Shown here: positions 40,719-61,117 of the stretch, piece by piece
Layout: each line of letters opens with the position of its first letter
Position numbering within the stretch: position 1 is the stretch's first letter
Assembly: GCA_044222185.1 (NCBI GenBank)
Contig: JBGANV010000004.1
Coordinates: forward strand, 192,001 to 256,000
DNA length: 64,000 bases
Direction of reading: 5' to 3'
From: Planctomycetota bacterium
GTDB taxonomy: Bacteria; Planctomycetota; GCA-002687715; CAIWVZ01
Notes under the pieces: generated by a model
Told to the model about the DNA's origin: nothing
What the model saw: only the letters and a program-made list of their open reading frames with translations
Database searches by the model: none
Made by a program: the position numbers and the translations under genes

Positions 40719-41816
40719 TCATCCGGCCGCGAACGGCAACTCGCCCGCAGGGGCAGGCTCGGCCTCGCGCAGCGGCGCGCGTGAGTGGGAGGCGATCCAG
40801 CGATCGTCGCCCGCGGGCTCGACCCCGTCGACGCGCAGGAATTCGAGATCGACTTCCTGTTCCGTGATGACGGGGAAACCATAGGTGGCGTTCGTGTAGC
40901 CGATCTCTTTTCCCGCGGCGAGACGTTCGGCGACGAAGGCGGCGTGGTCGGCGAAGCGTCGTTGGGTTCGGTCGCGTCCCACGTCGGCGGCGGCACGGAG
41001 GGATCGGGCGATCGACGGAGCCAGGGCGACGTCGCGCTCGATGCCGATGCTCGACCGCCCCGAAGCGACGGCGGCCGCCAGCGTGGTGCCGACGCCGGCG
41101 AACGGATCGAGGACCGTGTCACCCGCCATCGACAGCATCTGAATGAGCCGATACGGCACCTCGAACGGGAACGCCGCGCTGCGCTCCCGCATCTCCGGAT
41201 CCCCGAGCGTCTGGCGTGTGCCGGTGAGGCTCGTCCACACGTCCGAGAACCAGGCGTTGCGCTCCTCCCAGAAGAACGCGCTGCGCCGCCGCGCGAGCTT
41301 CTCGGCCGGAGACGCGAAGACGCGCTTCGGGCCCTTGCGAAAGATCAGGATGTACTCGTGCTCGTACGTGACGTACGCGCCCGCAGGCAGCATCCCCGAG
41401 CCCATGAACTTGTTCGGTGCGTTCGTCGGCTTGCGCCAGAGGATGTCGGGCAGCGCGATGAAGCCCGCCGCCTGCATCGCCTGCGAGATCCGCGCATGGT
41501 TCGTGTAGAGCCGAAACTCACCCTCGATGGTGCGCGTGGCGTCGCCGACGTTGATGCACACGAATCCGCCGTCGGCGACGGCGCGGAACGCCGCGCGCCA
41601 CACGTCATCGAGGATCACGTGCATCCTCTCGAACGCCGCGCCACCATCTCCCGCGTCGAGCGCCTGGGCCACGCGCGGATCGAGAGCCGAGAAGATCCCG
41701 TCCCACATCTCGATCATGGGATACGGCGGCGACGTCACGAGGAGCTGCACCATCCCCGGCTCGGTGAACTCCAGCGCACGCGCGTCGCCGACGATCAGCC
41801 GATGGTGCGTCTTCAT
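40719..41816 (-). CDS. Site-specific DNA methyltransferase (beta-class, probably N4-cytosine), orphan
   Basis: Motif IV VTSPPY precedes motif I VLDPFAGVGTT. Confidence 0.9.
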   Translation of the reverse strand: MKTHHRLIVGDARALEFTEPGMVQLLVTSPPYPMIEMWDGIFSALDPRVAQALDAGDGGAAFERMHVILDDVWRAAFRAVADGGFVCINVGDATRTIEGEFRLYTNHARISQAMQAAGFIALPDILWRKPTNAPNKFMGSGMLPAGAYVTYEHEYILIFRKGPKRVFASPAEKLARRRSAFFWEERNAWFSDVWTSLTGTRQTLGDPEMRERSAAFPFEVPYRLIQMLSMAGDTVLDPFAGVGTTLAAAVASGRSSIGIERDVALAPSIARSLRAAADVGRDRTQRRFADHAAFVAERLAAGKEIGYTNATYGFPVITEQEVDLEFLRVDGVEPAGDDRWIASHSRAPLREAEPAPAGELPFAAG

Positions 41817-41830
41817 GGGCGAGTCAGGCT

Positions 41831-43348
41831 TCACGGCAACACGGTGAACTCGAGCGCGTCCGTCAGCACCACGCCCGTGGGCGCCAACGGGTCCAGCGAT
41901 GCGAACTGAACCCAGGCTCGCGCGCACGCGAAGATCGGATCGGTGGGAACGGGGAACGTGATCTCTGCGCATCCGCTGGAGTCGGCGGGCACGGGGAGGA
42001 AGAACCCCGGATCCGGGTCGACCCACAGGTTGCCGGCCGGCGGCAGCGGGTAGGGGAGCGGCTGCCCGAGCCCGACCGAGAAGCTGCTGCTGGTTCCCAG
42101 GAGCAGGTAGGCCGTCGTGAACGGGTAGGTGTTCGCCGTCGCGAGCGTCACGGTCGCTCGATGCGATGGCGCGTAGCCGTTGGCGCTCACCTTCATCACG
42201 CTGTTGAACCCCACGCCGCCGACGCCGAAGAGATACGGATCGGGGCGCAGCTGCCCGCGAAGCTCGCCCTGCGGGAAGGCGGTCGTCGCGACGCTGACGT
42301 ACAACCGCGCGCGGTAGAGGTCGTTCACCTGCGACGGCGTGAGCGCGAGCGTTCCATTCCAACTCGTCGGCCCACCTGCGAGCGTGGCGACGAGCGCGCC
42401 GTTGCCCCCGTCCGGCCCGCGATTGACGGTCACGGCCGGCGGTGAGCCGGCGAACGCCGACGTTTCCACGTGGTAGACGAGCTGGGACGTCACGGGATCG
42501 AACTCGCCCCAGCCGCACCCCGTCGCCGACGTGGCCGCCGGGGGAACGACGTGGGTGCCAGACAACGGGATCGAGAAGGAAGCGTGCGCGGGCGTCACGG
42601 CCCCGCGGATCTCCCCGGCCGGAAACGCGGGCGATTCCACGCTGATGTAGGTGTTGGTCGCGAGCAACTGGACGACCTCAGCCGGGCTCAGGGCCTCGGA
42701 TACACCGCAGAAGTGGCCATCGGCCCCCGTCAGCTCGACGGCGACGGGGCCGTTCGAGCCAGGGGCTCCGATCCTGAGCCGAGCCGCCGAGGCCGGAGCG
42801 ACCCCGGTCGTGCGCACGTCGAAAACGAGCACGCCGTCCGGCTCGTTCAGGCGGATCGTCGCCCTCCCGGTGGCCGTGCTTGCGGTCGGTGGGACGACCT
42901 GGGCGCCAGTGAGCGTGGCTTCGTAGTAGGTCTTCTTGACGGGCTGGAGCTGGCCCCGCACCTCACCGGCGGGGAACGCCGGCGTGAACGCGATGACGTG
43001 GAGCCCCTCCTCGTGCGCCGCGAGCGCCTGCGCCGGGGTGAGCGCGCCGGTCGTTCCGTCGAAGACCACGGGCCCACCGGCCAGGGTGAACAGGGTCGGG
43101 CCGTTCGATCCCGCAGATCCCAGCCGGATCTCCGCGGACCCGGCGAAAGCTCCGATCAGCACGAAGTAGTAGGTGATCGTGTGGGACGGCTCGTTCAGGG
43201 TGAAAACGCCGACGCCACCCGCGGTCGACGCCGTCGGCGGGACGACGTTCTGACCGCTGACGACGGTTTCGAGCTGCCACTGACCGAGCGAGATCGTGGT
43301 GAGAAGCCCTATCGACACGAGGGCACGAGCAAGGACGCGTGGAACCAT
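41831..43348 (-). CDS. Secreted triple-CHRD-domain protein with shared C-terminal domain
   Basis: Three repeats of L.G..VVPP.AS.A.G...G.NGP...FP.GE.RG. Signal peptide. Confidence 0.85.
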   Translation of the reverse strand: MVPRVLARALVSIGLLTTISLGQWQLETVVSGQNVVPPTASTAGGVGVFTLNEPSHTITYYFVLIGAFAGSAEIRLGSAGSNGPTLFTLAGGPVVFDGTTGALTPAQALAAHEEGLHVIAFTPAFPAGEVRGQLQPVKKTYYEATLTGAQVVPPTASTATGRATIRLNEPDGVLVFDVRTTGVAPASAARLRIGAPGSNGPVAVELTGADGHFCGVSEALSPAEVVQLLATNTYISVESPAFPAGEIRGAVTPAHASFSIPLSGTHVVPPAATSATGCGWGEFDPVTSQLVYHVETSAFAGSPPAVTVNRGPDGGNGALVATLAGGPTSWNGTLALTPSQVNDLYRARLYVSVATTAFPQGELRGQLRPDPYLFGVGGVGFNSVMKVSANGYAPSHRATVTLATANTYPFTTAYLLLGTSSSFSVGLGQPLPYPLPPAGNLWVDPDPGFFLPVPADSSGCAEITFPVPTDPIFACARAWVQFASLDPLAPTGVVLTDALEFTVLP

Positions 43349-43779
43349 GGCGGCACTCCTGGGCCGGGGGAACGCGGCCGACGTGGGTGTGCACTGTACG
43401 CGGGATCGGCCTGCCCCTCCGCATCCCAAAGTCGATGCAACGCCGGCGGCACCGCCGGCATTTTTCAGAACTGAGCCCGCCGCGTGGCTCGACCGTGTGT
43501 GTTCCGCCGAGCGCCCGCTGTTGGTGCGCTTCCACGGTCGACCCGCCGGCGGGTTCGTTCTCCCTCGTCTCGTTCGCCACTCGCCGTTCCGCGTTCGCGG
43601 GTAGACTGCCGTTACCCGAAAAAAGCCCGGCACTGTCATTTCAGGAAGTGCCACGACGCTTTGTCGAACGGAAAGGGAACGGAACCCGGCGGCGCCAGAT
43701 CCCCATGGGCGGATCGGACGCGAGGCTCGGGGTATGGATCCAATCTCTTTCGCGTGCGGCCGGAGAAAGGCGCAATGAG

Positions 43780-44469
43780 ATGGATCGGGTGGCTCAGGAT
43801 GTAGCGAATTGGATTCGGGCCGTCGCCAAGCCGGCGAACGTGGTGATCGGACCGCCCACGGATGGTGGAAGCGAGCTGACGATCTCCCTGCACCTCCACG
43901 GCATGCGACATGATCTGTCGGCGGCGATGCCGCGCAGCTCAGCGACGAAGCATGCCGTGCCACTCAGCGTCGTGGTGCGGTTCCTCGTGTGCGTCTCGTC
44001 TCCGGATCCAGCGGCGGCCCTCGCGATGCTCAGCACCGTCGTCTTCGCGGCCCTCGAAAAGCCCGGATTCCGCCTGGATCTGGATCCACCGCCGCCCGAG
44101 TTCTGGTTGGCTCACGGGGTTCGGCCGCAGCCGTCGTTCATCATCGAGGCGCCGTGCGTGCACGAGCGCCCCGGTCGCCAGGCCAAGCCGGTGCGCGAGG
44201 TGGTGCTCAAGGGCACTCCGCTCCGCACGCTCGAGGGCGTCGTCGTCGACAAGCAGGACAAGCCGATCAGCGGCGTTACCGTCGACCTCCCCGCGCTCGA
44301 ACTGACCGTTCGCACCGACAACAAGGGCCGCTTCATCTTCGCGGCCGTACCCAGGGACCTCGGCACGAAGACCTTCCGCTTGCGCGCTCGCGGCAAGGAG
44401 ATCTCCGTGCGCGCGCCGAGCCCGACGGCGCCGATGCCTTTCACAATCCGCTTCCCAGATTTGGAGTGA
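43780..44469 (+). CDS. CIS Pvc16/DUF4255-like terminator-cap protein fused to a carboxypeptidase-regulatory-like domain
   Basis: First gene before the sheath. FW...G..PQPSF motif and C-terminal G.VVD....PISG...RTDNKGRFIF. Confidence 0.65.
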   Translation: MDRVAQDVANWIRAVAKPANVVIGPPTDGGSELTISLHLHGMRHDLSAAMPRSSATKHAVPLSVVVRFLVCVSSPDPAAALAMLSTVVFAALEKPGFRLDLDPPPPEFWLAHGVRPQPSFIIEAPCVHERPGRQAKPVREVVLKGTPLRTLEGVVVDKQDKPISGVTVDLPALELTVRTDNKGRFIFAAVPRDLGTKTFRLRARGKEISVRAPSPTAPMPFTIRFPDLE

Positions 44470-44473
44470 TGAC

Positions 44474-45673
44474 ATGCCGAACTACATGACACCCGGGGTC
44501 TACGTCGAGGAGATCTCGACGGGACCGCGACCGATCCAGGCCGTCGGCACGAGCACGGCCGGGTTCGTCGGAGTTGCGCCCAACGCGACGGCGCACGTGA
44601 ACGAGGCGTTCGCCGTCACGAACTGGTCGCAGTTCCTGCGGGAGTTCGTGGGCAAGGCCACCAAGTCCACTCCGCTCTCCCACGCGGTGTTCGGCTTCTT
44701 CAACAACGGCGGCCAGCGCTGCTACGTCGTCAACATCGGAGACGCGAAGACGATCGGCGGCGGGGCCTCGGGCAAGAAGGGCATCCAGGTTCTCGAATCG
44801 ATCGACGAGATCGCCATCGTCGCCGCGCCCGGGTACTCGGACGCCGCGTCCTACGACATGCTCATCTCGCATGCCGAAGGGCTGAAGGATCGGGTGGCCG
44901 TGCTCGACGCGCCGAAAGACGTGGCGAACATCGACCTCCTGAAGCAGGTCGCCGTGGCAACGCCCACGGGCGCTGGCGCAGCCGCTGCGTCCGCGGCCGC
45001 CACCGCAGGGCTTCGCCCGCGGCAATCCGACCAGGGTTTCGGTGCGTTCTACTTCCCGTGGATCTACGTGCGCGATCCGCTCTCGCCGGACGATCTCGTC
45101 GCCGTGCCTCCGAGCGGTCACCTCGCGGGCATCTACGCCCGAACGGACGCCACTCGCGGTGTGCACAAGGCGCCGGCCAATGAAGCCATTCGCGGCGCGT
45201 TGAACCTGACCTACCGCATCAGTCGCCAGGAGCAGGGCGAGCTGAACCAGCTCGGCGTCAACTGCCTGCGGTTCTTCCCGAAGGAAGGCATCCGGGTGTG
45301 GGGCGCGCGCACGCTCGCCGATGGGGCGGGCGAGTGGCGGTATCTGAACGTGCGCCGGCTGTTCAACATGATCGAGAACTCGATCATGAACAGCACGCGG
45401 TGGGTGGTGTTCGAACCGAACGATCGCACCCTGTGGAAGGCGATTCGCCGCGACATCACGGCGTTCCTCACGTTGCTCTGGCGCGATGGCGCGCTCATGG
45501 GCGCGACGCCGGAAGAAGCGTTCTTCGTCCAGTGCGACGAGGAGACGAACCCGCCCGAGAGCATAGACGAAGGACGCGTGGTCACCATGATCGGCGTGGC
45601 CCCCGTGAAGCCCGCCGAGTTCATCATCTTCCGCATCGGCCAGCACGCCGGCGGTGCACAGGTCGAAGTCTGA
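44474..45673 (+). CDS. Contractile tail sheath protein
   Basis: TPGVYVEE, VPPSGHLAG, RGVHKAPANE, VWGARTL, WRYLNVRR and VKPAEF motifs. Confidence 0.97.
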   Translation: MPNYMTPGVYVEEISTGPRPIQAVGTSTAGFVGVAPNATAHVNEAFAVTNWSQFLREFVGKATKSTPLSHAVFGFFNNGGQRCYVVNIGDAKTIGGGASGKKGIQVLESIDEIAIVAAPGYSDAASYDMLISHAEGLKDRVAVLDAPKDVANIDLLKQVAVATPTGAGAAAASAAATAGLRPRQSDQGFGAFYFPWIYVRDPLSPDDLVAVPPSGHLAGIYARTDATRGVHKAPANEAIRGALNLTYRISRQEQGELNQLGVNCLRFFPKEGIRVWGARTLADGAGEWRYLNVRRLFNMIENSIMNSTRWVVFEPNDRTLWKAIRRDITAFLTLLWRDGALMGATPEEAFFVQCDEETNPPESIDEGRVVTMIGVAPVKPAEFIIFRIGQHAGGAQVEV

Positions 45674-45690
45674 GATAGGGAGCTCCTACC

Positions 45691-46152
45691 ATGCCGCAAC
45701 CAGCCCCAGCCGGAGCCCAGCCGGGACAGTTCACCGATCCCTACCGGGCCTACAACTTCAAGGTCGAGATCCAGGGCGTGACGGAAGGTCACTTCACGCA
45801 GTGCCAGGGACTCGAGGTCGACGTGCAGGTCATCCAGTACCGCGAGGCCGGCACGAGTCAGATCGTCCATCAGATTCCGGGTCGTGTCGACTACGCGGGC
45901 ATAACGCTCAAGTACGGCGTGACGAACTCGAAGGACCTGTGGGACTGGCTCATGACGGCCGTGCGCGGAAAGGTCGAACGCCGCAACGTGTCGGTCGTCA
46001 TGCTCGGACCCGACGGCGTCGACCCGGTCCTGCGTTGGGATCTGATCAACGCATGGCCGTCCCGCTGGAAGGGCGTCGGCTTCGACGCCCTCTCGCAGGA
46101 GATGGCCATCGAATCGTTGACGCTGGTCTTCGAGTCGCTCGACCGAGGATGA
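45691..46152 (+). CDS. Tail tube protein (T4 gp19-like)
   Basis: DPYRAYNFKVEI, YREAG, ITLKYG, AWPSRW and AIESLTL motifs. Confidence 0.95.
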   Translation: MPQPAPAGAQPGQFTDPYRAYNFKVEIQGVTEGHFTQCQGLEVDVQVIQYREAGTSQIVHQIPGRVDYAGITLKYGVTNSKDLWDWLMTAVRGKVERRNVSVVMLGPDGVDPVLRWDLINAWPSRWKGVGFDALSQEMAIESLTLVFESLDRG

Positions 46153-46155
46153 TCC

Positions 46156-47442
46156 ATGCCGGGCCCGCGACTATCGACGAGGGTTCTCCTCGTTGCCGCC
46201 CGTTGGCTTCAACGCGCGGCGACGGCGCTGATGCGTCGGGCCGCGGCGCGCGAGGCCGGCGAGCAGTCGGAGTCGGCGGGCACGCCTGAGACTCCCGCTG
46301 CCGATGGCTCGGGCGAGGGACCGCCGGCCCATTGGCTTGCGAGGGTGGCGACGATGACGCCGATCGCCGCCGGCGGACACGTCGTCGCGCCCGAGGCGAC
46401 ACCTCTCACGGACACGCCGACGGAAGAACCGGTCGTGATTCGACCGCGGCACGACCCGTCGCCGGTGCAACGCGGCGCTCCGTCGCCAGCGACCACGCCC
46501 GCCCCGCAGGTCGAGACTCGCGCACCCAGTCGCGTCGCACCGCGCGTGGAAGGTCCCGCGCGCGAATCGACGGAAAGCCCGTTGGCGAAGCGACCGGTGC
46601 CGCCGGACGTCGCATCGGCGCCGCGCAATGCAATCGCCCCCGACCAGTCGGAGCGAAGCGCGCCGCACACCGCGGCCGCCACCGAAGGCGGAACGACGAG
46701 GGCTCGTCCGCCTCACATGACTCCCGCCCAGCGCGCTCGCCCGGCGCGAGAGGCACCCGCACCGAGCATTGAATCCCCGAGGCCGGCACCGGCGCGCCCG
46801 GCAGCTCATGCGCCCGAGGAATCCGTCGTCGACCCGTCGCGGATGAGCCGCCCCGTCGATCGCGAGCCCGCACGGCGTTCTCCCGTACACGTGACGGCGT
46901 CGCCATCGAGCGAACATCCGCCCGTGCCCGTGCGCAGGCAGCTCGGTGCCGGCGAGACGACCACGAAACCGGCACCGCCGGCGCGATCGACGGTCGACGT
47001 GACGGCGTCGCCAGCTCGGCGAGACCAGGAGTTCCAATCGCCGTGTTCCGAGCCCTCCGTCCGCAACTCACCGCGACGAATGGCGCCGGCCGGCGACCCA
47101 GCGGCACGGGCGACGACTTCGCGCACGCCGGTTTCGGATCCGCTCGTTCCGCCGACCCGCGCGCAGCGGCCTCGCCCCGAGCTCGCGATGCCCGGTGACG
47201 ACCATCGCGCGCGGCGATCACCCGACATGCCACCGCGCGCTCCGGCGGAGACGCTCCTCCCGGGTGCGCCCGTCTGGCCCTCGCACTTGCCGGCCGACGT
47301 CGAGATCTCGGACGACCGATGGCCAAGCCTGCTGGCGCCCTCTGCACCGCGTCCCGAGGTGCTGGCCGAGCGCGCGGAGCGGGAGCGAGCGCGCCAGCGC
47401 CGGCTTCTTGCCGAGCAGCGAGGTGAATCATGGAGCGCGTAG
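46156..47442 (+). CDS. Pro/Arg/Ala-rich low-complexity CIS protein (tape-measure candidate)
   Basis: Tightly coupled between the tube and initiator genes. Disordered composition with a helical C-terminal tail (WPSL...RRLLAEQRG). Confidence 0.55.
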   Translation: MPGPRLSTRVLLVAARWLQRAATALMRRAAAREAGEQSESAGTPETPAADGSGEGPPAHWLARVATMTPIAAGGHVVAPEATPLTDTPTEEPVVIRPRHDPSPVQRGAPSPATTPAPQVETRAPSRVAPRVEGPARESTESPLAKRPVPPDVASAPRNAIAPDQSERSAPHTAAATEGGTTRARPPHMTPAQRARPAREAPAPSIESPRPAPARPAAHAPEESVVDPSRMSRPVDREPARRSPVHVTASPSSEHPPVPVRRQLGAGETTTKPAPPARSTVDVTASPARRDQEFQSPCSEPSVRNSPRRMAPAGDPAARATTSRTPVSDPLVPPTRAQRPRPELAMPGDDHRARRSPDMPPRAPAETLLPGAPVWPSHLPADVEISDDRWPSLLAPSAPRPEVLAERAERERARQRRLLAEQRGESWSA

Positions 47443-48200
47443 CGTTCCTCATCGAGCCCGGCGCGACGCGGATCGGGTGTCTGCTGAACCCCGAGTCGCT
47501 CACGGTCCGCCGCCTCTCGGGAATCACCAAGCGCGAGACCGCGGGCGGGGCCATCGCGGGCCGTGGCCTGTCGGACGACGTCCTGCAGTTCACCGGCGGA
47601 GGCACGACGGAGATCGATCTCGCCCTTCTCTTCGACATCGGGCTCGCCGGGTCCACGATCGCATCGTGCGACGTTCGCGATCTCACGGCCCCTCTGTGGC
47701 AGCTGTCCGAAAACGCGTCGGAAGACGGCTCGTACGGCTGCCCGCCGACCGTGCGCTTCGTGTGGGGGAAGGGCTGGAACATCCCGGGTGTCATCGCTGC
47801 CGTCTCCGAGAGACTCGACGATTTCTCCGCCGACGGCATCCCGCGACGCTCGTGGCTTCGGCTGCGCCTCATCCGCGTCCCCGAGCCCGCGCCGCGAACG
47901 GCTGGCCTCGGCCAACCGCTGATCATTCCGCAGCTGCCGGACGTGCTCGAAGCGCAGCCGGCCGTGCCCGCCGACGATGCACCCGTCCACGAGGTTCTCG
48001 GTGGGACGGTCGAGTCCGAGGGCTCGGACGCGAACATCGTGCGGGGCGATCGCATCGACACGATCGCGTTCCGCTACTGCGGAGATCCGGCGGCGTGGCG
48101 GCTGATCGCCTACATGAACGACCTGGTCGATCCGCTGCGCATCGCTGCGGGCACGCTCCTCCGCTTGCCGCAGGCCCTCGCCGCGAGGGTGAAGTCGTGA
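47430..48200 (+). CDS. CIS tube-initiator protein with LysM-like C-terminus (Afp7/Pvc7-like)
   Basis: LNPESL, LLFD, PPTVRFVWG and GDRIDTIA...GDPAAWRLIA..N...DP motifs. Confidence 0.85.
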   Translation: MERVAFLIEPGATRIGCLLNPESLTVRRLSGITKRETAGGAIAGRGLSDDVLQFTGGGTTEIDLALLFDIGLAGSTIASCDVRDLTAPLWQLSENASEDGSYGCPPTVRFVWGKGWNIPGVIAAVSERLDDFSADGIPRRSWLRLRLIRVPEPAPRTAGLGQPLIIPQLPDVLEAQPAVPADDAPVHEVLGGTVESEGSDANIVRGDRIDTIAFRYCGDPAAWRLIAYMNDLVDPLRIAAGTLLRLPQALAARVKS

Positions 48201-49714
48201 CCGTCGCGCTGGAGCCCGTTCGCGCGGTCGTCGAGGTCGACGGTCGCGCGATCGGAGAGGCCGATGCGCGTGCGCTGACGCAGGTCACCGTGCACCAAAG
48301 CCTCAGCCTGCCCGCCGTGTGCGAGCTGGTCTTCGTCGATCCCACGGGAGACATGGCCCGTTTGGGTGTGCGCGCCGGTGCCACGCTGTCGGTTCGCACC
48401 GCGGACGTCGGCGCGGCGTTGTTCGTCGGCGAGGTCACCGGCGTGACCTTCTCGTTCGGCCCGACGGCGTCGCGGGAAGTGCGCGTTCGTGCTTACGACG
48501 CGCTGCACCGGATGCGGAAGTCGCAGCCCACGCGCGTCCACCTCGACGTGAACACCGCGGGGCTTGCGCGGGAGCTTGCGGGCTCCTCGGGGCTCACCGT
48601 CCAAGCAGACGACGTAGGCCCCACCTGGCCCCGCATCCTCCAATGGGAGATGTCGGACCTGGACCTGCTCACGGACGTCGCGGCCCACTCCGGTCTCCAC
48701 TTCGTCGCCGACGACGAGACGCTCACGCTCGTCACGGCCGAGGGTCGCGGTGAGGCCGTCGCACTCACGCTGGGCGAGGAGCTGATCGAGGCCACGCTCG
48801 ACGTGAATGGCGACCCGGCCTGCCGAACGGTTGGCGTCTTCGGGTGGAATTGCCTGCGGAACGAACCCCATCGCGCGTCTGCGTCGGAGGCGCCCGTGGG
48901 ACATTCCATCGACCTCGCGTTCCGCCCCGATCTGATCGACGTCGATGGCGAACGGCGACTGGCGAACGTCTTCGTCACGGACGACGATCAGGCGCAGGCG
49001 GCCGCGAAGGCCGAGCTGTCGGCTCGCATCGCGCGCGAGGTGACCGTCACAGGCGCGGCACGCGGTGACGCGAAGCTCAGACCAGCGGCCAAGGTAGATC
49101 TGCGGGGGCTGGGAGAGTTCCTCGACGGCACCCACGTCGTGACGGCCGCGACCCACAGGATCCGCGCCCAGACGGGCTACGTGACCGAGTTCTCGACGAT
49201 GCCGCCCGCACCCCGTTCACGGTGCGTCGAGCCGATCCTCACCGTGGGCGTGGTCGCAAGCGTCCTCGATCCGGAACGGCTCGGGCGCGTGCAGGTGAAC
49301 CTGCCTGCGCTCGGTGACCTCGCGTCCGATTGGATGCAGGTCGTTCTGCCGGCGGCGGGCGATCGCAAGGGCCTCATCGCCGTGCCCGACGTCGGCGATC
49401 ACGTGCTCGTGGCGTTCGCGCGCGACGTGCTGGCGCAGGGGTTCGTCCTCGGCGGGCTGTTCGGCACCCGGGATCTGCCCGATGGCGCGCCTCGTGGAGG
49501 TTCGGTGCCCGTGTTCGCGTTCATGACCCCCGGTGGTCAGCGCGTTCGACTGGACGACGACGAAAAAAGCCTGCGCTTCGAGATCGCCGCGGGAAGCTTC
49601 GTGGAACTGAAGCCTGCAGCCGTGACGCTTCACGCGGCGGCCGATCTCCTGATCGAGGCACCGGGGCACGGGATCGTCATCAGGGGTCGCAAAGTCGACT
49701 TCAAGCAGAGCTGA
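48197..49714 (+). CDS. VgrG-like spike/hub (phage late control D + gp5 OB fold)
   Basis: Q..MSDLDLL, DPERLGRVQV, W..V...AG..KG...PDVGDHVLVAF and VLGGL motifs. Confidence 0.9.
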   Translation: MTVALEPVRAVVEVDGRAIGEADARALTQVTVHQSLSLPAVCELVFVDPTGDMARLGVRAGATLSVRTADVGAALFVGEVTGVTFSFGPTASREVRVRAYDALHRMRKSQPTRVHLDVNTAGLARELAGSSGLTVQADDVGPTWPRILQWEMSDLDLLTDVAAHSGLHFVADDETLTLVTAEGRGEAVALTLGEELIEATLDVNGDPACRTVGVFGWNCLRNEPHRASASEAPVGHSIDLAFRPDLIDVDGERRLANVFVTDDDQAQAAAKAELSARIAREVTVTGAARGDAKLRPAAKVDLRGLGEFLDGTHVVTAATHRIRAQTGYVTEFSTMPPAPRSRCVEPILTVGVVASVLDPERLGRVQVNLPALGDLASDWMQVVLPAAGDRKGLIAVPDVGDHVLVAFARDVLAQGFVLGGLFGTRDLPDGAPRGGSVPVFAFMTPGGQRVRLDDDEKSLRFEIAAGSFVELKPAAVTLHAAADLLIEAPGHGIVIRGRKVDFKQS

Positions 49715-49715
49715 C

Positions 49716-50063
49716 ATGCACTTTCTCACCGAGGATCTCGTGATCGTGTGCCAGCACCAGACGGGGCACGTGGACGTGCCGCCGTCGCAGGATTGGGTCA
49801 CGATCGAGTCGCGTCGGGTGATCATCGAGCCGGATCCGGAAGGGCGGCCCATCTCTGGGTGCCTGAACTTCAACCCGGCGGCCGGCATCCGCCCGTGCAA
49901 GACGACGCTGCCCGTGCGCGCCGGTTACTCCGAGTGGATCAAGATCGATGGACACCGCGTGTCCCTGGATTCGGTCGTCGGGTTCACGGATGGGACGCCG
50001 CCGCGCATCGTCGATTACATCGTTCGCGCACCGGGGCAGTGTCTCGTGTCGGAGATCCCGTGA
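49716..50063 (+). CDS. PAAR-like spike tip protein
   Basis: 115 aa directly after the spike gene. C-x-H...GC...PC is a potential Zn site. Confidence 0.65.
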   Translation: MHFLTEDLVIVCQHQTGHVDVPPSQDWVTIESRRVIIEPDPEGRPISGCLNFNPAAGIRPCKTTLPVRAGYSEWIKIDGHRVSLDSVVGFTDGTPPRIVDYIVRAPGQCLVSEIP

Positions 50064-50491
50064 GCGCCCCGCGTTGGAGAGGCTGGAGGTTCGAGCAACC
50101 AGCGATCGACATGCCCGACGAGGCGGCCGGGCTCTCCACCTCGGCGTCCGGCGGCATCGAGACGGTCGACGGTCACGCGGCCGTCCGCCAATCGCTGCTC
50201 ATGCTGCTGTCGACCACGCCGGGCGAGCGCGTCATGCGCCCTGATTACGGGTGCGACCTGCGGCGACTCGTGTTTTCGCCCAACGACGACACGACCGCGG
50301 GACTCGCGATCCACTACGTTCGACAGGCGGTCGCGCGATTCGAGCCGCGCGTCAAGGTTCTGCGGATCGACGCCGTGCGCGTCGAGTCCGAACCCGGCCG
50401 CCTCGACCTCGTGCTCGAGTATTGCCTCCGCTCGACGCTCGAGCGCAACACGCTGACGTTCAACATCGGCCTGTCCGGAGATCAGACGTGA
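50060..50491 (+). CDS. Baseplate wedge gp25/GPW family
   Basis: LSTTPGERVMRPDYGC and FEPRV motifs. Confidence 0.93.
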   Translation: MSAPRWRGWRFEQPAIDMPDEAAGLSTSASGGIETVDGHAAVRQSLLMLLSTTPGERVMRPDYGCDLRRLVFSPNDDTTAGLAIHYVRQAVARFEPRVKVLRIDAVRVESEPGRLDLVLEYCLRSTLERNTLTFNIGLSGDQT

Positions 50492-53067
50492 CGGCGTCCT
50501 TCGAATCACCGAACCTCGACGATCGCACGTTCCAGCAGTTGATGGACGAGGCGGTGGCCCGCGCGAAGCAGGCGTGCCCGTCGTGGACGGACTTCTCACC
50601 GGGCGACCCCGGTGTCACGTTGCTCGAGCTCTTTGCATTCCTCACGGAGACGCTGATCTATCGGCTAAATCGCGTGCCCGAGAAGGCGTACGTGGAGTTC
50701 CTCCGGCTGCTCGGCGTGCGACTCGCGCCTCCGTCTTCGGCCGCTGCCACGCTCGTGTTCTCGCGCGCCCGGGCCGGGGATCGGCCGCTCGTGATTCCGC
50801 GCGGAACCCGCGTGACGGTGTCGCGCACCGGCGCTGGAGCCGAGCCCCCCGTCTTCACCACGGATCGGGAGGTCTCGATCCCGGCGGGCGCCACCGACGT
50901 CAAGGTGAATGCGCATCACGCGGATCTCGTGGAAGGCGAGCTGCTCGGAACTTCGACCGGCGCGCCCGGCCAGACGTTCACGGTGAAGCGCGCGCCGATC
51001 ATCGCGCCCAGCGGAGATGAACTCGATTTCGTGCTCGGCGTCGAGGCGGCCGCAGGCGAACTCGTCGATCGAAAGAACGCGGTCTCGTTCGGCGAAAAGG
51101 CCTACGCGATCTGGCGCGAGGTGGAGAACTTCGGGTCCACGTCGCCCGACTCTCTGGCATTCGTGGTGGATCGCGCGACCGGGCGCGTGACTTTCGGTGC
51201 CGGCGTTCGCGGCGCACGCCCCGGGGAGACCGCCGTTCGAGGATTGGCGGCCATCCCGGCAGCGGGCCGACAGATTCGCTGCTGGTACCGCTGCGGCGGT
51301 GGCGTCGCCGGGAACGTGGCCGCGGGAATGCTGACGGTGCTGAAGGACCCCATCGCCGGCGTGACCGTCACGAACCCTGCACTGGCGACGGGCGGGCGCG
51401 CCGCGGAGACGCTGCAGAACGCGCTGGTGCGCGGCCCCCAGGAGTTCCGATCGCTGGAGCGCGCGGTCACCGCCGACGACTTCGAGCTGCTCGCCATCCG
51501 TTCGTCGGGAGCCGTGTCGCGCGCGAAGGCGTCGAATCTCGCGGATACGTGGGCGCACGCGGTGCCGGGGACCGTCGAGGTCGTCCTCGTGCCGGCCGTG
51601 CCCGCCGATGCGGCACCGCGCGGTGTCGTCACACGTGCGACGCTCGCGGAGCGCGAGACCGAAGGTGCCCGCGCCCGAATCCAGGAGGCGCTCGACGCGC
51701 GACGCACGCTGGGTACGAACTGCCGCGTGACCTGGGCCCGCTACAAGGCCGTCACCGTGACGGCGCGCGTCGTCATTCATCGAGAGGAGGACCCGGAGGC
51801 GATCCGTCGGACCCTGCTCGAGAGGCTCCACCGCGCCATCAACCCCGTCTCCACGTCCGCGGATCACCAGGGGTGGCGCTTCGGCCAGCCGCTTCGCGTG
51901 TCCACGGTCTACGACCTGGCGCTTTCGGAGCCGGGAGTGAAGTTCGCCGACGGTGTCGCGCTCGTCGTCGACGAGGTCCCTGCGGGCGCCGTCACGTGCC
52001 TCGCGCGAGACGGCCACCAGCCGCGGACGTGTTTCGCGACGGCGGGCGACTCGCTCTTCCGGACCGGAAACGACGCGGACGGCTGGGAGCGCGTGGGGCG
52101 GTTCGACGGCGAGACGGTCAACGTGGTCGAGACGCACGAGGGCATGGCGGGCGTGGTCGGGTGTGCAACGTCACTCGGCGACGCGGACGGCAGCTCGCGG
52201 ATCCGCGTCTCGACGGACTGCGGCGAGACCTGGCGCGTGGCGGCGCAGTTCGCGTTTCCGGTCAACGATCTCGCGTGGATGACGCGGGACCAGGTCCCCG
52301 TGCTTCTCATGGCGACCGAGAAGGGGCTTTACGAGATCGCACTCAAGGACGGCGCGACGCCGCTTCAGATACTCGTCGTCGACAGCGCGCAAGACCTGGG
52401 CATGACTGCCGTCGCGGTGGCCGTCGACCCACGCGGTGCCGTCACCGTCGCGGTCGCTGCCCGGCAGACGCGGGGCGTCTTCATCTCCGGGCGAGGCGGG
52501 GAGCCCAAGTCGTTCCGCCCCGCACCCGGGCTCGAGGGGGCGGACATCGCCGCACTCGAGGTGCAACGCGACGGCCCGCGCTCGTTCCTCTGGGCCGGGT
52601 TCTCCGCCGAGATGGGCGAAGAGGGGCGCGGCTGCTCGCGGCGCGAGATTCGCGCATCCGAGGATGCACCAGCGACGTGGGAACCAGTGGCCAAGGGATG
52701 GAGCGGCGGGAGCTGCAACGCGCTGGCGTTCCTCCCCGATGCCGTCGTTGCGGCCACGCGGCGCGCGGGCGTGCTGCGACTGCCGGCCGGACCGGGAGGC
52801 GGCGCCTGGGAACCGTGCGACATCAACTGCGGGCTTCCACTGCGCGACAAGTCCCGCCTTCACCCGGTGGACGCCGTCGCGGCGAGCCCAGCGGGCGTCG
52901 TCCTCGCTGGCGGTCCCGTCGGTGTCTTTCGGACCCAGGACGGCGGAAAGAGCTGGGTCGCGCGGTCGACCCGAGAACACACGGATCGGGTGACGATCCC
53001 CGAGAACTGGCTCTTCTGCAGCGGCGATCACACGCTGACAGTCGTCAGCGAGGACGCGGCGACGTGA
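50488..53067 (+). CDS. Baseplate J-like protein with C-terminal BNR/Asp-box beta-propeller
   Basis: PNLDDRTF, WTD.SPGDPGVTLLELFA, GNV.AG and RAVTADDFE motifs. The last third carries STDCGETW and TQDGGKSW. Confidence 0.9.
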   Translation: MTASFESPNLDDRTFQQLMDEAVARAKQACPSWTDFSPGDPGVTLLELFAFLTETLIYRLNRVPEKAYVEFLRLLGVRLAPPSSAAATLVFSRARAGDRPLVIPRGTRVTVSRTGAGAEPPVFTTDREVSIPAGATDVKVNAHHADLVEGELLGTSTGAPGQTFTVKRAPIIAPSGDELDFVLGVEAAAGELVDRKNAVSFGEKAYAIWREVENFGSTSPDSLAFVVDRATGRVTFGAGVRGARPGETAVRGLAAIPAAGRQIRCWYRCGGGVAGNVAAGMLTVLKDPIAGVTVTNPALATGGRAAETLQNALVRGPQEFRSLERAVTADDFELLAIRSSGAVSRAKASNLADTWAHAVPGTVEVVLVPAVPADAAPRGVVTRATLAERETEGARARIQEALDARRTLGTNCRVTWARYKAVTVTARVVIHREEDPEAIRRTLLERLHRAINPVSTSADHQGWRFGQPLRVSTVYDLALSEPGVKFADGVALVVDEVPAGAVTCLARDGHQPRTCFATAGDSLFRTGNDADGWERVGRFDGETVNVVETHEGMAGVVGCATSLGDADGSSRIRVSTDCGETWRVAAQFAFPVNDLAWMTRDQVPVLLMATEKGLYEIALKDGATPLQILVVDSAQDLGMTAVAVAVDPRGAVTVAVAARQTRGVFISGRGGEPKSFRPAPGLEGADIAALEVQRDGPRSFLWAGFSAEMGEEGRGCSRREIRASEDAPATWEPVAKGWSGGSCNALAFLPDAVVAATRRAGVLRLPAGPGGGAWEPCDINCGLPLRDKSRLHPVDAVAASPAGVVLAGGPVGVFRTQDGGKSWVARSTREHTDRVTIPENWLFCSGDHTLTVVSEDAAT

Positions 53068-53077
53068 TGGTGATCGA

Positions 53078-53638
53078 ATGAAGACGGACGACATCATCCT
53101 CCTGCTGCCGGCGGTGTATCAGCGCGCACTCGCGCCGGGTTCGCCGCTGCGAGCCGTGCTCTCCGTGATGCAGGGGCTCCACGAGCCCGTCGAGGCATCG
53201 CTCGCGACGCTCGACGCCGACTTCGATCCGCTCAGGGCGCCGCCGGCGTTCCTGCCGTTCCTCGCGCGATGGCTCGACCTCACGCGGCTGTTCGACGACC
53301 CCGATCGGGGGAGCGACGCCGAAAGACGGTCCATCCAACGACGACGCATGGCTTCCGTTGGAGACGGCCCGCTGCGCACGCTGATTGCGGCCGGCGCCGA
53401 GCTCAGTCGCCGACGGGGCACGCCGGCGGGGCTGATTCGCTGCCTCGAACTCGCGACCGGAGTCCGCGGATTCCGCCTCGACGAGGGGCCGGCCGATGCT
53501 CTCGGTCGTCCCCGCCCCTTCCATTTCCGGGTCCGCGCGCCGCTCGAGTCACGGCGCCATCAGGTCCTCATCGAACGAATCATCACATCGGAGAAGCCGG
53601 CTCACGTCACTCACGAGTTGGCGTTCGAGACGCGCTGA
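53078..53638 (+). CDS. Phage tail protein I-like baseplate protein
   Basis: LPAVYQ, FDP..AP..FLPFLARW, RGT..GL and EKPAH motifs. Confidence 0.88.
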   Translation: MKTDDIILLLPAVYQRALAPGSPLRAVLSVMQGLHEPVEASLATLDADFDPLRAPPAFLPFLARWLDLTRLFDDPDRGSDAERRSIQRRRMASVGDGPLRTLIAAGAELSRRRGTPAGLIRCLELATGVRGFRLDEGPADALGRPRPFHFRVRAPLESRRHQVLIERIITSEKPAHVTHELAFETR

Positions 53639-53652
53639 ACAGGAGCAGAGCC

Positions 53653-55200
53653 ATGCCGAGCCCATTTGCCATCACACCGTCGGCCGACACCGTCGCGATC
53701 GATGCGAATCGCAGGGGAGAAGTCGCGTTCACCGTGTCGAACACGTCGGCGGCCCCCGTGCGCAGCCGGGGGAAGGTCGTTGCCGGCGACCCGGCTCAAC
53801 AGGCCTGGTACTCGCTCGCGGGGAACCCGGAGCGCCCGCTCAAGCCCGGCGAGACCACGCAGTACGTCGTCCGCGTCGCGTTGCCGCAGACGGCGACGGA
53901 GGGCACGTACCAGTTCCGCCTGGATGCCGTCTCCGTCGAGAACCCCGACGAGATGTTCACCACGGGGCAGCCCGTCGGGTTCACGTTCAAACCGCCCGCG
54001 GAGCCGCCCAAGAAGCCGTTCCCCTGGTGGATCCTCGCCGTCGTCGGCGGAGCGCTGCTCATCATCGGCGTCGTCCTCTTCTTCGTTCTACGGAACACGG
54101 ACGTCACGGTCCCCGATCTGAAGAACATGACGTACGAGGAGGCCGTGGACGCGTTGACGCAGGCCGGGCTCGAAGCGGAGGAGATCCAGGTCGTGGCCGG
54201 CGGACCGGAGAACAAGGTCAGCGGGCAGGACCCCGCGCCGGATACGCAGGTCCCGAAGAACTCGGTGGTGAAGGTCACGCACGAAGCAGCCTTCGTCGAA
54301 GTGCCGGCACTCGTGCGCACGCAGATCGATGACGTGGCCGAGGCGCTCAAGGCGCGCAAGCTCGCGCAGGGCACGGTGGCCGAAGTGAAGCGTGACGTGA
54401 GCAAGGCCGGCCTGGTGCTCGAGCAGGATCCGGCGGCCGGCACGCGCGTTCCCGCGGGGACGGCCGTCGCCGTCGTCGCCGAAGCCCCGTTGCGCAAAGT
54501 CCCGACGGACCTCGTGGGAAAGAAGACCCGAGAAGTCGTCGAGAGGCTGAGCGCCGATTTCGAAGTGAAGGTCGGCGACCCGAAGCGCAGTGATCGGACG
54601 AAGGCCGGGCAGGTGCTCGCCTCCGACCCGCGCGGCGGCACCGTCCTGCAGCGCGGCGACGTCGTCAATCTGGACGTCGAGGCCGGGAATCTCACGCTCA
54701 TGAGCGTGGTGGGACTGGCCCCGGACAAGGCGATCGAAGAGCTCCGCACGAAGCAGGGGTTGAAGTCGAAGATCGGTGCGCCGGCGCTCTTGCCCGTGGG
54801 CGCGCCGGGCGTGGTGGGGAAGATCGGCTACACGAATCCACCACCAAACAGCGACGTCGCGGAGACGGACACGATCGAGATCATCCCCATCGGCGCCGAG
54901 GCGAAGATGCCCGACGGACTCATCGGCCTGGTGCGAGACCAGGCGGAGGCGGCCGTCACGCGTGCGCACCTGAAGCCTGTCGTGCGCCTGCAATTCGATC
55001 GGCTGAACAGCAACAAGGTGCTGCGGATCGATCCCGCCGCGAACACGCGCTTGCTGGCCGAGTCGCCAGTGACGATCTACGTCGGTTCGAGCCACGTCCG
55101 CTTCCCGCGCCCCGGCCTGGTCGATGCCGGCATGCTCACCGACGTCGTCATCCCGGTCGGCGGGACCGGCCCCGTTCGTCGCGCGACGGGCGGCCACTGA
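53653..55200 (+). CDS. Bitopic membrane protein: N-terminal Ig-like domain, TM helix, five PASTA repeats
   Basis: RBS AGGAG and no signal peptide. TM KKPFPWWILAVVGGALLIIGVVLFFVL. Five VP.L.G...A...L...V..QDP..G..V units. Confidence 0.85.
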   Translation: MPSPFAITPSADTVAIDANRRGEVAFTVSNTSAAPVRSRGKVVAGDPAQQAWYSLAGNPERPLKPGETTQYVVRVALPQTATEGTYQFRLDAVSVENPDEMFTTGQPVGFTFKPPAEPPKKPFPWWILAVVGGALLIIGVVLFFVLRNTDVTVPDLKNMTYEEAVDALTQAGLEAEEIQVVAGGPENKVSGQDPAPDTQVPKNSVVKVTHEAAFVEVPALVRTQIDDVAEALKARKLAQGTVAEVKRDVSKAGLVLEQDPAAGTRVPAGTAVAVVAEAPLRKVPTDLVGKKTREVVERLSADFEVKVGDPKRSDRTKAGQVLASDPRGGTVLQRGDVVNLDVEAGNLTLMSVVGLAPDKAIEELRTKQGLKSKIGAPALLPVGAPGVVGKIGYTNPPPNSDVAETDTIEIIPIGAEAKMPDGLIGLVRDQAEAAVTRAHLKPVVRLQFDRLNSNKVLRIDPAANTRLLAESPVTIYVGSSHVRFPRPGLVDAGMLTDVVIPVGGTGPVRRATGGH

Positions 55201-55204
55201 GGCG

Positions 55205-55678
55205 ATGTCCGGCACCCGCATCGCCATCGTCGTGCTCGTGCTGATCGCCATCTTCGTGGCGGTCGCGTTGTTCGTCGGCCTGGGGCGCGACGATGGCGGA
55301 ACGGCCGTCGAGACGAAGGCGTGGCAGAAACGGCTGAAGAGTTTCGTCTCCGATCAGCAGAAGCTGCCGCTCTCGGACGTGAAGGGCGTCGGCGTGGACG
55401 GCGATCGCATCGTGCTCACCGCGGCAATCCCTGCAACCACTCTCACGATCCGAGAGAGCGACCAGAACCTGCGGTCCGCCCGGCTGCGCCTCCTCAGCGG
55501 TACCCGCGTGAAGGTCGAGGTCGTTCCCAAGGGTGCCGATCGCCCGCGCGTGAAGGCCGAGTTGAAGAACGTCAACGACGCGCTCGCCCTCCAGGTGTTT
55601 CGCGAAGGCGCCACGCTCGCGATCCTCGGCGGCGGCGCGGGCGCGTCGACCATCCTGCGGATCGAGCCGGCGGAGTGA
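55205..55678 (+). CDS. N-terminally membrane-anchored hypothetical protein, likely co-transcribed with the CIS
   Basis: Starts 4 nt after the PASTA gene stop. One N-terminal TM followed by a beta-rich domain. Confidence 0.7.
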   Translation: MSGTRIAIVVLVLIAIFVAVALFVGLGRDDGGTAVETKAWQKRLKSFVSDQQKLPLSDVKGVGVDGDRIVLTAAIPATTLTIRESDQNLRSARLRLLSGTRVKVEVVPKGADRPRVKAELKNVNDALALQVFREGATLAILGGGAGASTILRIEPAE

Positions 55679-55784
55679 ACCCGCGTCGATCGGGGCGCGG
55701 CCGAGGCCGCATGTCGTGATCGACGGAGATCGTCTGGCGATGCCCCTGTTGCGAGTCCGTGGCTTCACGCAGTAGGCTTTGCCG

Positions 55785-56117
55785 ATGAACGAGCCGGGAG
55801 AACCGCCGACGTCCCCACCTCCACCCGTCGGGAAGGCGCCACGCCAGGAAGGCTGTCTCTGGGCGCTGATCTCGCCGTTGATCTTCCTCTTCCTCGGCTG
55901 TGCGGCCATCGGGTTGCCGCTCGCCGCCGTGTCCGGCCTCATCATCGGCCCGGCGTGCTTGTTGTGGGACAAGGAAATGACGGGCGAGGCGCCGGAGGAA
56001 CGTCACCGCACCGGATGGGTGATGCTCGCGATCGGCGTGATCTCCGCGCTCATCATCTACGTGGTGCGACTGCGCACGAAGCTCGCGTCGGCGACGAAAT
56101 CCATCGCCGCGAAGTAG
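55785..56117 (+). CDS. Small membrane protein
   Basis: Three hydrophobic segments. Confidence 0.55.
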   Translation: MNEPGEPPTSPPPPVGKAPRQEGCLWALISPLIFLFLGCAAIGLPLAAVSGLIIGPACLLWDKEMTGEAPEERHRTGWVMLAIGVISALIIYVVRLRTKLASATKSIAAK

Positions 56118-59903: not shown

Positions 59904-60268
59904 CGAGCCTGGTGGCGCATCTGTTTCACGAGCAGCCAGGCCCCTGCGAACAGGTGCGAGAACGGACGGATTCTCAGTAGTGGCGCGAGCCAGGACCAGC
60001 CCGGGAGCGCGGCGACGACCGGAGCCACCACGTCGACGCCCCGAAGGATGCGCCCATCCGGCAGCATGAGATGGACGTCACGCGTGGTCGAATCCGCCGG
60101 CAACCCATGTCGCGCGATCAGGTCGGAGGCTTGCGACGCCGGGATCAGGTCGACGCGGCGGCGTGCGTCTCGGCGACGTATCCCGTCGGCGATCGAGCGG
60201 CACAGGGGGCAGGTGTCGTCATAGACCAGGACGAGCCTTTCGGCCGGTTCGGGCGCGGCCTCGTTCAC
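59900..60268 (-). CDS. DCC1-like thiol-disulfide oxidoreductase (DUF393)
   Basis: LVYDDTCPLC motif. GTG start overlaps the upstream stop. Confidence 0.8.
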   Translation of the reverse strand: MNEAAPEPAERLVLVYDDTCPLCRSIADGIRRRDARRRVDLIPASQASDLIARHGLPADSTTRDVHLMLPDGRILRGVDVVAPVVAALPGWSWLAPLLRIRPFSHLFAGAWLLVKQMRHQAR

Positions 60269-61086: not shown

Positions 61087-61117
61087 GATCGTGTTCCTTC
61101 AGGGACGGGTCGTGCGC

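Follow-up and report, generated by a model that had tools for sequence, protein, structure and literature searches.

A compact contractile injection system operon that ends in a membrane protein, and its relatives in other bacterial phyla

The operon and its conservation

This report concerns a contractile injection system (CIS) encoded in the genome of a member of the Planctomycetota (assembly GCA_044222185.1; 7.08 Mb, 16 contigs, 93.8% complete). The window, that is, the whole stretch of DNA that was analysed, covers 64 kb of contig JBGANV010000004.1 (C14) and has a GC content of about 68%. The locus itself lies at positions 43780-55678 of the plus strand and belongs to a series of 13 consecutive open reading frames (ORFs) of the same strand, g1 to g13 (Table 1), flanked by a divergent gene for a CHRD protein upstream and a convergent gene for a DUF4139 protein downstream. 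The proteins were identified with Pfam, NCBIfam and PHROGs, together with sequence searches of the PDB. A preliminary description of this DNA had reported a tightly coupled core operon, and this was recovered in full: all ten named core genes are present and intact on the plus strand, and the spacing from g1 to g12 never exceeds a gap or overlap of 17 bases. The statement that there is one sheath gene and one tube gene extends to the whole 7.08-Mb assembly, in which the sheath and the tube (PF06841) each have a single match. The locus is a real, intact phage-tail-like contractile injection system with a complete set of core parts.

Table 1. Genes of the injection system and membrane protein genes downstream of it (positions in the window)
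Gene	Positions	Strand	Product	Basis or remark
g1	43780-44469	+	cap, Cis16/Afp16-like N-domain	extra C-terminal CarboxypepD_reg-like beta-sandwich, PF13620 E 2.9e-8
g2	44474-45673	+	sheath, 399 aa, short form	PF04984 and PF17482; phrog_23 E 9e-70
g3	45691-46152	+	tube, gp19-type	PF06841 E 8.9e-38; TIGR02241
g4	46156-47442	+	low-complexity P/A/R-rich protein	position and pattern
g5	47430-48200	+	tube initiator, Cis7/Afp7-like, LysM-like C-terminus	PF19266 E 3.8e-9
g6	48197-49714	+	VgrG-like spike, one contiguous ORF	PF04717 and PF05954; NF033848 E 2.8e-50
g7	49716-50063	+	probable PAAR-like spike tip, 115 aa	invariant residues, Atlas clusters
g8	50060-50491	+	gp25/TssE-like baseplate wedge protein	PF04965 E 6.1e-25
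g9	50488-53067	+	baseplate J (Cis11) with fused propeller (modelled)	PF04865; TIGR02243 E 1.4e-89
g10	53078-53638	+	short Cis12, Tail_P2_I type baseplate protein	PF09684; TIGR02242
g11	53653-55200	+	bitopic membrane protein	one transmembrane helix; PASTA PF03793 E 9.6e-39
g12	55205-55678 (most likely)	+	small N-terminally anchored membrane protein	no conserved relatives
g13	55779-56117	+	small membrane protein, membership doubtful	100-base gap after g12
M1	59124-59903	-	polytopic membrane protein, 259 aa, about 6-7 transmembrane helices by eye	conserved partner
M2	60265-61086	-	polytopic, HExxH motif	accessory in a subset of loci
M3	61118-62272	-	polytopic, HExxH motif	accessory in a subset of loci

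A sheath search over one genome per species gave 70 loci, which were compared by tblastn with all 13 proteins of the operon. The gene order of the window is conserved in other genomes: from the cap to the gpI gene it is identical in 28 further loci, and five more loci are partial. The sheaths of these compact loci are 54-80% identical to the sheath of the window, and in a tree of 61 rows, which leaves out the 10 of 70 loci that yielded no complete sheath ORF, a branch with an SH-aLRT support of 100 separates the 29 compact rows from all others. They are thus one sheath clade, and because the architecture, terminal membrane protein included, is kept in 28 of 28 related loci, the locus stands for a subtype and is not the product of truncation.

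The carriers span about a dozen phyla. They belong to the Planctomycetota, Gemmatimonadota, Acidobacteriota, Verrucomicrobiota, Actinomycetota, Cyanobacteriota, Chloroflexota, Gamma- and 'Delta'-proteobacteria, Nitrospirota, Dormibacteraeota and Desulfobacteraceae, and include Marinimicrobium locisalis ISL-43 and Leptolyngbya sp. AN02str. The sister of the window sheath is that of a planctomycete metagenome-assembled genome (74% identity). In the lineage of the host, a sheath was found in none of four genomes of the same family, and one of 18 genomes of the same order gave a weak match; the N-terminal domain of g11, described below, occurs in six of 401 sampled Planctomycetota, the host included, when 10 candidates per genome are scored. 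This patchy distribution suggests horizontal spread.

Six core parts were searched against solved structures, and the CIS of Streptomyces coelicolor (CIS-Sc; entry 9GTP, Casu 2025) was the best match for every one. The sheath matches 8bky/9gtp with an E-value of 1.8e-111, the tube initiator g5 matches 9gtp_P ('LysM domain-containing protein') with E 5.8e-8 and the spike g6 matches 9gtr_q with E 6.3e-22. For the cap, a profile of 21 homologues matches Cis16 of CIS-Sc (9gts_0A, 'Pvc16 N-terminal domain-containing protein') with E 4.9e-6; the single g1 protein gave no match to Pvc16_N of Pfam, and the cap gene was found in 27 of the 29 loci of the clade. The J protein g9 matches Cis11 of CIS-Sc (9gtp_1K) with E 6e-66 over residues 121-492 only, and a profile of g10 matches end to end a chain of 190 aa (9gtp_E, E 8.4e-15) in the baseplate entry of CIS-Sc, a chain that we take to be Cis12. 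The C-terminal 370 residues or so of g9 (about 51955-53064) are modelled as a seven-bladed beta-propeller of the Asp-box type (pLDDT 88.1, pTM 0.87). This extension is kept in the 27 loci with a J coverage of at least 80%, only locus L058 falling short.

Two of the core genes were assigned by less direct means. The g4 protein gave no family match in Pfam, NCBIfam or PHROGs, and all 28 related loci have a gene in its place. Comparison of 27 products of this position longer than 200 aa gave a range of 267-659 aa, a shared amphipathic N-terminus and, in most of them, a C-terminal WP.LP...EQ.G..W motif; by position and pattern, g4 is probably the tape measure. The g7 protein matched nothing in Pfam or NCBIfam, and a profile of it found no match among PDB sequences. 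Its gene is nevertheless present in 29 of 29 loci of the clade, residues C12, H14, C49 and C61 do not vary among 27 sequences, and of the named Atlas clusters DUF4280 and PAAR_motif come nearest (0.91), which makes a PAAR-like spike tip probable. The g8 gene starts either at GTG 50060, overlapping the stop of g7, or at ATG 50111.

Comparison of the window's 33 other ORFs with Pfam returned no capsid, terminase, lysin, Tss protein, Afp15-type AAA+ ATPase or fibre, in agreement with the preliminary description, which had recognised no such genes and none for lysis. A promoter scan gave 0 promoter-like sites, and a terminator scan gave 10 terminator-like sites, with 7.7 expected.

Membrane proteins of the system

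The preliminary description had the baseplate genes followed by two membrane-anchored proteins. Both are present, g11 starting at 53653 and not at 53659, and the operon does contain as its terminal conserved gene a membrane protein with an ectodomain of the peptidoglycan-binding type. This is g11, whereas g12 was found in no related locus. The system also extends beyond the end that had been assigned to it, with the conserved partners M1 to M3 on the minus strand at 59124-62272.

The g11 protein consists of an Ig-like N-domain (approximately residues 3-112), a transmembrane helix (approximately 125-146) and PASTA repeats, of which Pfam counts four and which begin about four residues after the helix; Pfam finds no kinase or transpeptidase domain attached to them. 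The N-domain is predicted as a beta-sandwich (pLDDT 95.5) whose fold resembles PapD-like chaperones and the ASH and MSP/VAP domains (TMq 0.44-0.54). No Pfam or NCBIfam model covers it, and its profile found nothing meaningful among PDB sequences (best E 0.005, a GH61 protein). The g11 family is present in 28 of 28 loci, in the flanks of 23 of them and, in all five remaining genomes, just past the flank or once about 10 kb upstream. What its members have in common is the N-domain, the transmembrane helix and a KKFPWW-like motif, the ectodomain being swapped. Four tandem copies lie directly downstream of the CIS operon in the Pyrinomonadaceae genome G048 (C109:7618-12325), and two to three copies occur in genomes G049, G170, G204, G279 and G362.

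The N-domain profile was also searched against 1.84 billion representatives (50% identity), and found 3386 of them at E<=1e-3 and 833 at E<=1e-30. Among the best 150, nearly all carry the domain at the very N-terminus, and a transmembrane helix follows it in 148. Composition was computed for 149 representatives: the N-terminal part is free of cysteine in 135, the C-terminal part has at least two cysteines in 88, and lysine plus arginine are more numerous before the helix than after it in 71, the reverse being true of 32. The position of the helix after the domain, the distribution of cysteines and the basic residues on the N-terminal side make an N-in/C-out topology, with a cytoplasmic N-domain, the most likely one. 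PASTA repeats were found in 34 of 80 members scanned and no Pfam domain in 41; Tectonin, CBM96, B_lectin, Laminin_G_3, thioredoxin and META domains occur in others. One member of the family has an N-terminal TIR domain, the g11-type domain being at residues 374-516.

M1 was found in the flanks of eight loci and, by whole-genome search, in 10 of 10 further genomes of the clade, as a single full-length copy in seven. In these 10 genomes the best M1 match is 0.3-9.4 kb from the CIS locus, the shared contig being deduced from the coordinates, so that every one of the 18 other genomes with an M1 match has it within about 10 kb of the CIS. It has no match in Pfam, NCBIfam or the PDB.

M2 and M3, which carry the motifs HELFH, and HESVH plus NNPWE, are less widespread and recur in just five other loci. 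A 69% identical pair is found upstream of the CIS in the planctomycete locus L032, and relatives of M3 directly follow gpI in four loci of the Pyrinomonadaceae type (L037, L038, L051, L098); a search with M3 found no match in five other genomes of the clade. Neither protein has a family match. An Atlas lead (0.81) towards DUF4157/eCIS_core was dropped, as the PF13699 hidden Markov model matched neither of them. The sole PF13699 (eCIS_core/DUF4157) protein of the genome, at 26 bits just above the cut-off, is encoded elsewhere (C6:380108-380986, minus strand), with gyrB on one side and a PLD gene resembling cardiolipin synthase on the other, in the region of dnaA, dnaN and gyrB, and is linked to nothing CIS-like. 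It could be an unlinked cargo of the CIS or be unrelated to it, and an AAA match nearby proved to be DnaA.

As for the two small proteins at the end of the gene series, g12 has no family match and no homologue in the 70 loci carrying a sheath. A match to an Rz-like PHROG (E 0.0047) is the sole hint of a lysis function in the window. For g13, no homologue was found in related loci, and a TctB match stays below the threshold.

The compact clade among known systems

Contractile injection systems are sorted by their site of action into released particles, the membrane-anchored type VI secretion system (T6SS), thylakoid-anchored systems and cytoplasmic ones. CIS-Sc, the closest of the systems with a solved structure, is described as having a short Cis12 and neither a tail fibre nor a conventional tape measure (Casu 2023, Casu 2025). 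Systems of its subtype (IId of dbeCIS) have particles that lie free in the cytoplasm or bind a membrane transiently, and that fire under stress. The same sources present CisA (Sco4242) as a bitopic N-in/C-out protein with an ectodomain of the sugar-binding type, needed for firing, and place its gene just downstream of cis11 and cis12 (Casu 2023). The locus of the window resembles this subtype IId system, as published, in its contiguous VgrG, its single Cis11, its short 190-aa Cis12 and its lack of a tail fibre. It also has a bitopic membrane protein gene downstream of the baseplate genes: in the window, as in most of the 28 loci, g11 immediately follows Cis12. The system is thus not without precedent, CIS-Sc having a membrane adaptor gene at the same position. 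By their published descriptions, to which the comparison is confined, g11 resembles CisA in position and Sco4256-4258, three other proteins of CIS-Sc, in architecture. There are also clear differences. CIS-Sc has two tube homologues (cis1a and cis1b, Casu 2023), as against one PF06841 gene here, and a sheath of 534 aa, as against 399 aa in the compact clade, which in turn possesses the J propeller, the beta-sandwich of the cap and the conserved polytopic M1. The N-terminal part of CisA is given as about 285 aa, largely unstructured, whereas that of g11 is a predicted Ig-like fold of about 115 aa. Sheaths of actinobacterial loci (L056, L068, L070, L079) are 44-50% identical to the compact sheath and fall on a separate branch (three of them are on the tree). 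Related Roseiflexus loci are listed with an ATPase, and the compact clade has none linked to it.

Other systems are more distant. The T6SS-like CIS of the haloarchaeon Halogeometricum borinquense, compared by description only, has beside its core genes a conserved membrane protein and putative anchor, Hbor_38620, reported to possess six transmembrane helices plus a domain of about 150 residues in the cytoplasm, and to correlate with membrane-bound action. M1 is comparable to it in kind, but that system is archaeal, its cluster includes an ATPase and its account contains no PASTA-type ectodomain. In the thylakoid CIS (tCIS) of Anabaena, Cis13, at the fibre position, is said to bind the baseplate by its N-terminus and to anchor the particle by a transmembrane helix, and baseplate proteins have extra domains, as here. 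The tCIS differs in its thylakoid anchoring, in its Cis13, a trimeric helical fibre with a C-terminal transmembrane helix, and in its reported Cis19 crown and Cis6 plug; its sheath match is 191 bits, versus 376 bits for CIS-Sc. The Afp/PVC particles (subtype Ia) share the cap, sheath, tube, Afp7, Afp8, Afp9, PAAR and Afp11, but their three sheath and two tube genes, long Afp12, Afp13 fibre and Afp15 ATPase, as given by Chen 2019, are absent here. The canonical T6SS shares VgrG, PAAR and gp25/TssE homologues and, if the reading given below is right, membrane-docked firing, but both sheath and baseplate belong to the phage/CIS type and neither TssJLM nor ClpV was recognised in the window. Similarity to Tss proteins in the window is limited to sub-threshold TssE and VgrG matches, and TssC (PF05943) has no match in the host genome, an E. 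coli control being positive.

The absence of an ATPase was followed beyond the locus. Neither the 13 proteins of the operon nor the window's remaining 33 ORFs contain an AAA domain, and the single match to an ATP-binding fold among them is an ABC transporter. A 473-aa AAA ATPase of the host, encoded on contig C9, was used as a probe. It matched none of the 33 compact loci (28 whole, five partial) and, as a positive control, six of the 37 other loci, each time upstream of the sheath. These six CIS-linked ATPases, 721-760 aa in length, gave weak AAA-domain matches in the host genome, the best with FtsH (E 5.9e-10), and one of the six gave none. The genome has 36 PF00004 matches, and of the 16 best ORFs all but one encode housekeeping proteins (FtsH, ClpX, RuvB, RarA, DnaX, sigma-54 activators, MoxR-like and Clp-like); the exception is the C9 protein itself. 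No Afp15 orthologue was thus found in the locus, in the related loci or in the assembly. As far as the locus and orthologues of Afp15 are concerned, the absence of an ATPase is firm, but it does not cover all conceivable helpers.

Such loci could easily be missed or set aside by surveys of extracellular CISs (eCISs), because these count Afp15 as a core part, require at least 10 core genes or exclude fibre-less loci. Indeed, the eight parts that Chen 2019 reports in more than 85% of eCIS loci are Afp1/5, Afp2/3/4, Afp7, Afp8, Afp9, Afp11, Afp15 and Afp16, and of this backbone tube, sheath, Afp7, Afp8, Afp9, Afp11 and Afp16 are present here and Afp15 is missing from the locus. The survey of Geller 2021 is stated to require at least 10 core genes, and Nachmias 2026 to have excluded fibre-less loci as possibly intracellular. 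A literature search on CISs with Planctomycetota, a membrane anchor or the lack of an ATPase returned no description of the clade; the supplements of dbeCIS, eCIStem and the 2026 fibre catalogue may list such loci. Among titles and the opening lines of abstracts retrieved for contractile injection systems and PASTA, none appeared to deal with a CIS membrane anchor. The clade is not a new category, and belongs to the known kind of membrane-associated or cytoplasmic CISs.

Proposed docking at the membrane and its alternatives

The best reading of these data is a cytoplasmic CIS that docks on the membrane, and its probability is put at about 0.5. Action at the membrane of the producer itself is suggested because the system always travels with two membrane proteins and without the usual ATPase and fibres. 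A complete, single-shot contractile particle would assemble in the cytoplasm, and its baseplate would dock on the producer's own cytoplasmic membrane by means of two dedicated proteins, g11 and M1, of which M1, being polytopic, cannot be tube cargo. The Ig-like N-domain of g11 would bind the periphery of the baseplate in the cytoplasm, and its PASTA or lectin ectodomain would bind or sense peptidoglycan or other envelope glycans in the periplasm. Firing would occur at the membrane, either outward in the manner of a T6SS or, once the envelope is under stress, on the producer itself, like the cytoplasmic CIS of Streptomyces, and without an ATPase of the Afp15/ClpV type there would be neither ATP-driven cargo loading nor recycling of the sheath. 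What the data themselves show is the gene content, the clade with its synteny, the lack of a linked ATPase, the folds and probable topology of g11, and the linkage of g11 and M1 to the system; that the particle is tethered and docks, what it binds, what sets it off and which way it fires we infer. In a more ambitious form, put forward tentatively and at distinctly less than even odds, the clade would be a widespread and hitherto unrecognised ATPase-free class of CIS wired to the envelope by a two-protein module, in which a VAP-like Ig tether reads peptidoglycan and is joined by a polytopic protein.

Several points weigh against docking. Localisation and the contact between g11 and the baseplate are themselves what we infer; a complex prediction combining the g11 N-domain, the J propeller and Cis12, with a median score of 0.27 and a mark of 0.32, speaks neither for nor against such a contact. 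The other points concern g11, the J propeller and the C9 ATPase, and are given here with the alternatives that they favour.

The most serious rival, although a doubtful one, regards g11 as a transmembrane effector carried by the particle. Its N-domain would then be a loading or packaging module, its transmembrane helix would act on membranes, its sugar-binding C-domain would aim or retain it, and M1 could be an immunity or handling factor. The architecture of g11 fits the published description of the CIS-Sc effectors Sco4256-4258, which share a highly similar N-terminus, one transmembrane helix and a C-terminal carbohydrate-binding domain of the ricin type, and whose loss is reported to empty the tube lumen and abolish function, as expected of effectors (Casu 2023). 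The tandem copies of g11, two to four in number, have variable, freely swapped C-domains, a pattern also typical of effectors, and the operon holds no other conserved toxin-like gene. On the other hand, g11 lies directly after Cis12, at the position of CisA or of a fibre, and its C-domains are binding modules, often rich in cysteine beside a cysteine-free N-terminal part, which fits insertion and export in the producer. Moreover, the N-domain profile found nothing significant among the ORFs of the 37 distant loci, actinobacterial ones included (best E 0.031).

It is unlikely that the system is an ordinary extracellular CIS released by lysis, in which the J propeller would replace the fibres and the membrane proteins would have a part in release, regulation or immunity. 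The operon does encode all the parts of a free particle. The modelled propeller is closest in Foldseek to the glycan-binding or glycan-cleaving propellers of the GH74 family (TMq 0.65-0.69), beta-propeller lectins are reported in eCIS fibres (Nachmias 2026), and the propeller could be the glycan-binding receptor module of a released particle. Its Foldseek matches to generic protein-binding propellers of the WD40 type are, however, nearly as good, and its sequence matches to sortilin and Ycf48 among PDB sequences are insignificant (E 0.25-0.8). No lysis cassette was found in the window, the Rz-like hint noted above being confined to the non-conserved g12, and the nearest studied relatives are cytoplasmic. 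Release through lysis also leaves unexplained why the two membrane proteins, one bitopic and one polytopic, are strictly co-inherited.

A further alternative, judged improbable, retains the CIS but has its ATPase function supplied in trans, by the C9 protein or by another unlinked or unassembled gene, the assembly being 93.8% complete. The C9 protein (C9:45182-46603) is an orphan ATPase of the classic AAA clade with an uncharacterised N-domain of 230 aa, and its gene lies about 1.1 kb from the end of the contig. Two further planctomycete genomes that carry the CIS have full-length orthologues (G044, 46% identity; G417, 40%), and none of 40 CIS-negative relatives has one (E<=1e-40). Such orthologues are missing, however, from four other g11-positive planctomycete genomes and from four non-planctomycete genomes of the clade, where only FtsH-like matches of 29-33% identity were found. 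In G044 the orthologue is 2.8 Mb away from the CIS, and the gene neighbourhood is not conserved. The protein is also much shorter, at 473 aa, than the ATPases linked to eCISs, with which it aligns over the AAA domain only (25-29% identity). A 1256-aa TIR-NB-ARC-WD40 protein of the STAND type (L022:688-4458, plus strand, contig C9) and a large Ser/Thr kinase are encoded a few kb from it.

A decaying prophage tail or R-type tailocin, whose sheath, tube, gp25, J and gpI families would be the same, is contradicted by the CIS-specific families (CIS_tube PF19266, VgrG_rel and the Cis16-type cap), by 64 kb without phage genes and by ORFs that are intact and keep one and the same order in 28 loci from many phyla, and its probability is close to negligible.

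Some features of the surroundings may be recorded. Upstream of the operon, ORFs for an N6_N4_Mtase DNA methylase (40719-42518, minus strand) and for a three-domain CHRD protein (41831-43963, minus strand) overlap as called, so that one of the two starts is probably wrong. At 18336-21500 (minus strand) a 1054-aa protein fuses sigma-70 regions 2 and 4 with a Big_1 and three CarboxypepD_reg domains, which is unusual for a sigma factor of the extracytoplasmic function (ECF) type. The window also encodes a DUF1570 domain, presumably typical of planctomycetes, and this DNA is listed for sludge, bioreactor and wastewater metagenomes, no RNA data set being listed with it.

To our knowledge, CisA is the only bacterial CIS adaptor that has been studied, and its contact with the particle is unproven. 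The compact clade bears on how cytoplasmic or fibre-less CISs reach a membrane and on what triggers them, and it offers a simpler system that crosses phyla, with an operon of about 12 kb, one sheath and one tube gene and no ATPase. The folded domain of g11, predicted to be cytoplasmic, can be modelled and mutated, and its PASTA ectodomain is sensor-like. The clade is of value because it spans many phyla, is simple, has cultured carriers (two are described as cultured strains) and brings with it an unannotated marker domain: the g11 N-domain family, large and without a Pfam or NCBIfam model, is a possible marker for such systems in metagenomes. The missing ATPase bears on the real need for ATPases of the Afp15 type. 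If the two-protein envelope module exists, envelope damage or contact from outside would directly trigger single-shot firing at the inner membrane, and the clade would represent a minimal, horizontally mobile analogue of the T6SS, or an envelope-stress suicide device, in at least 12 phyla.

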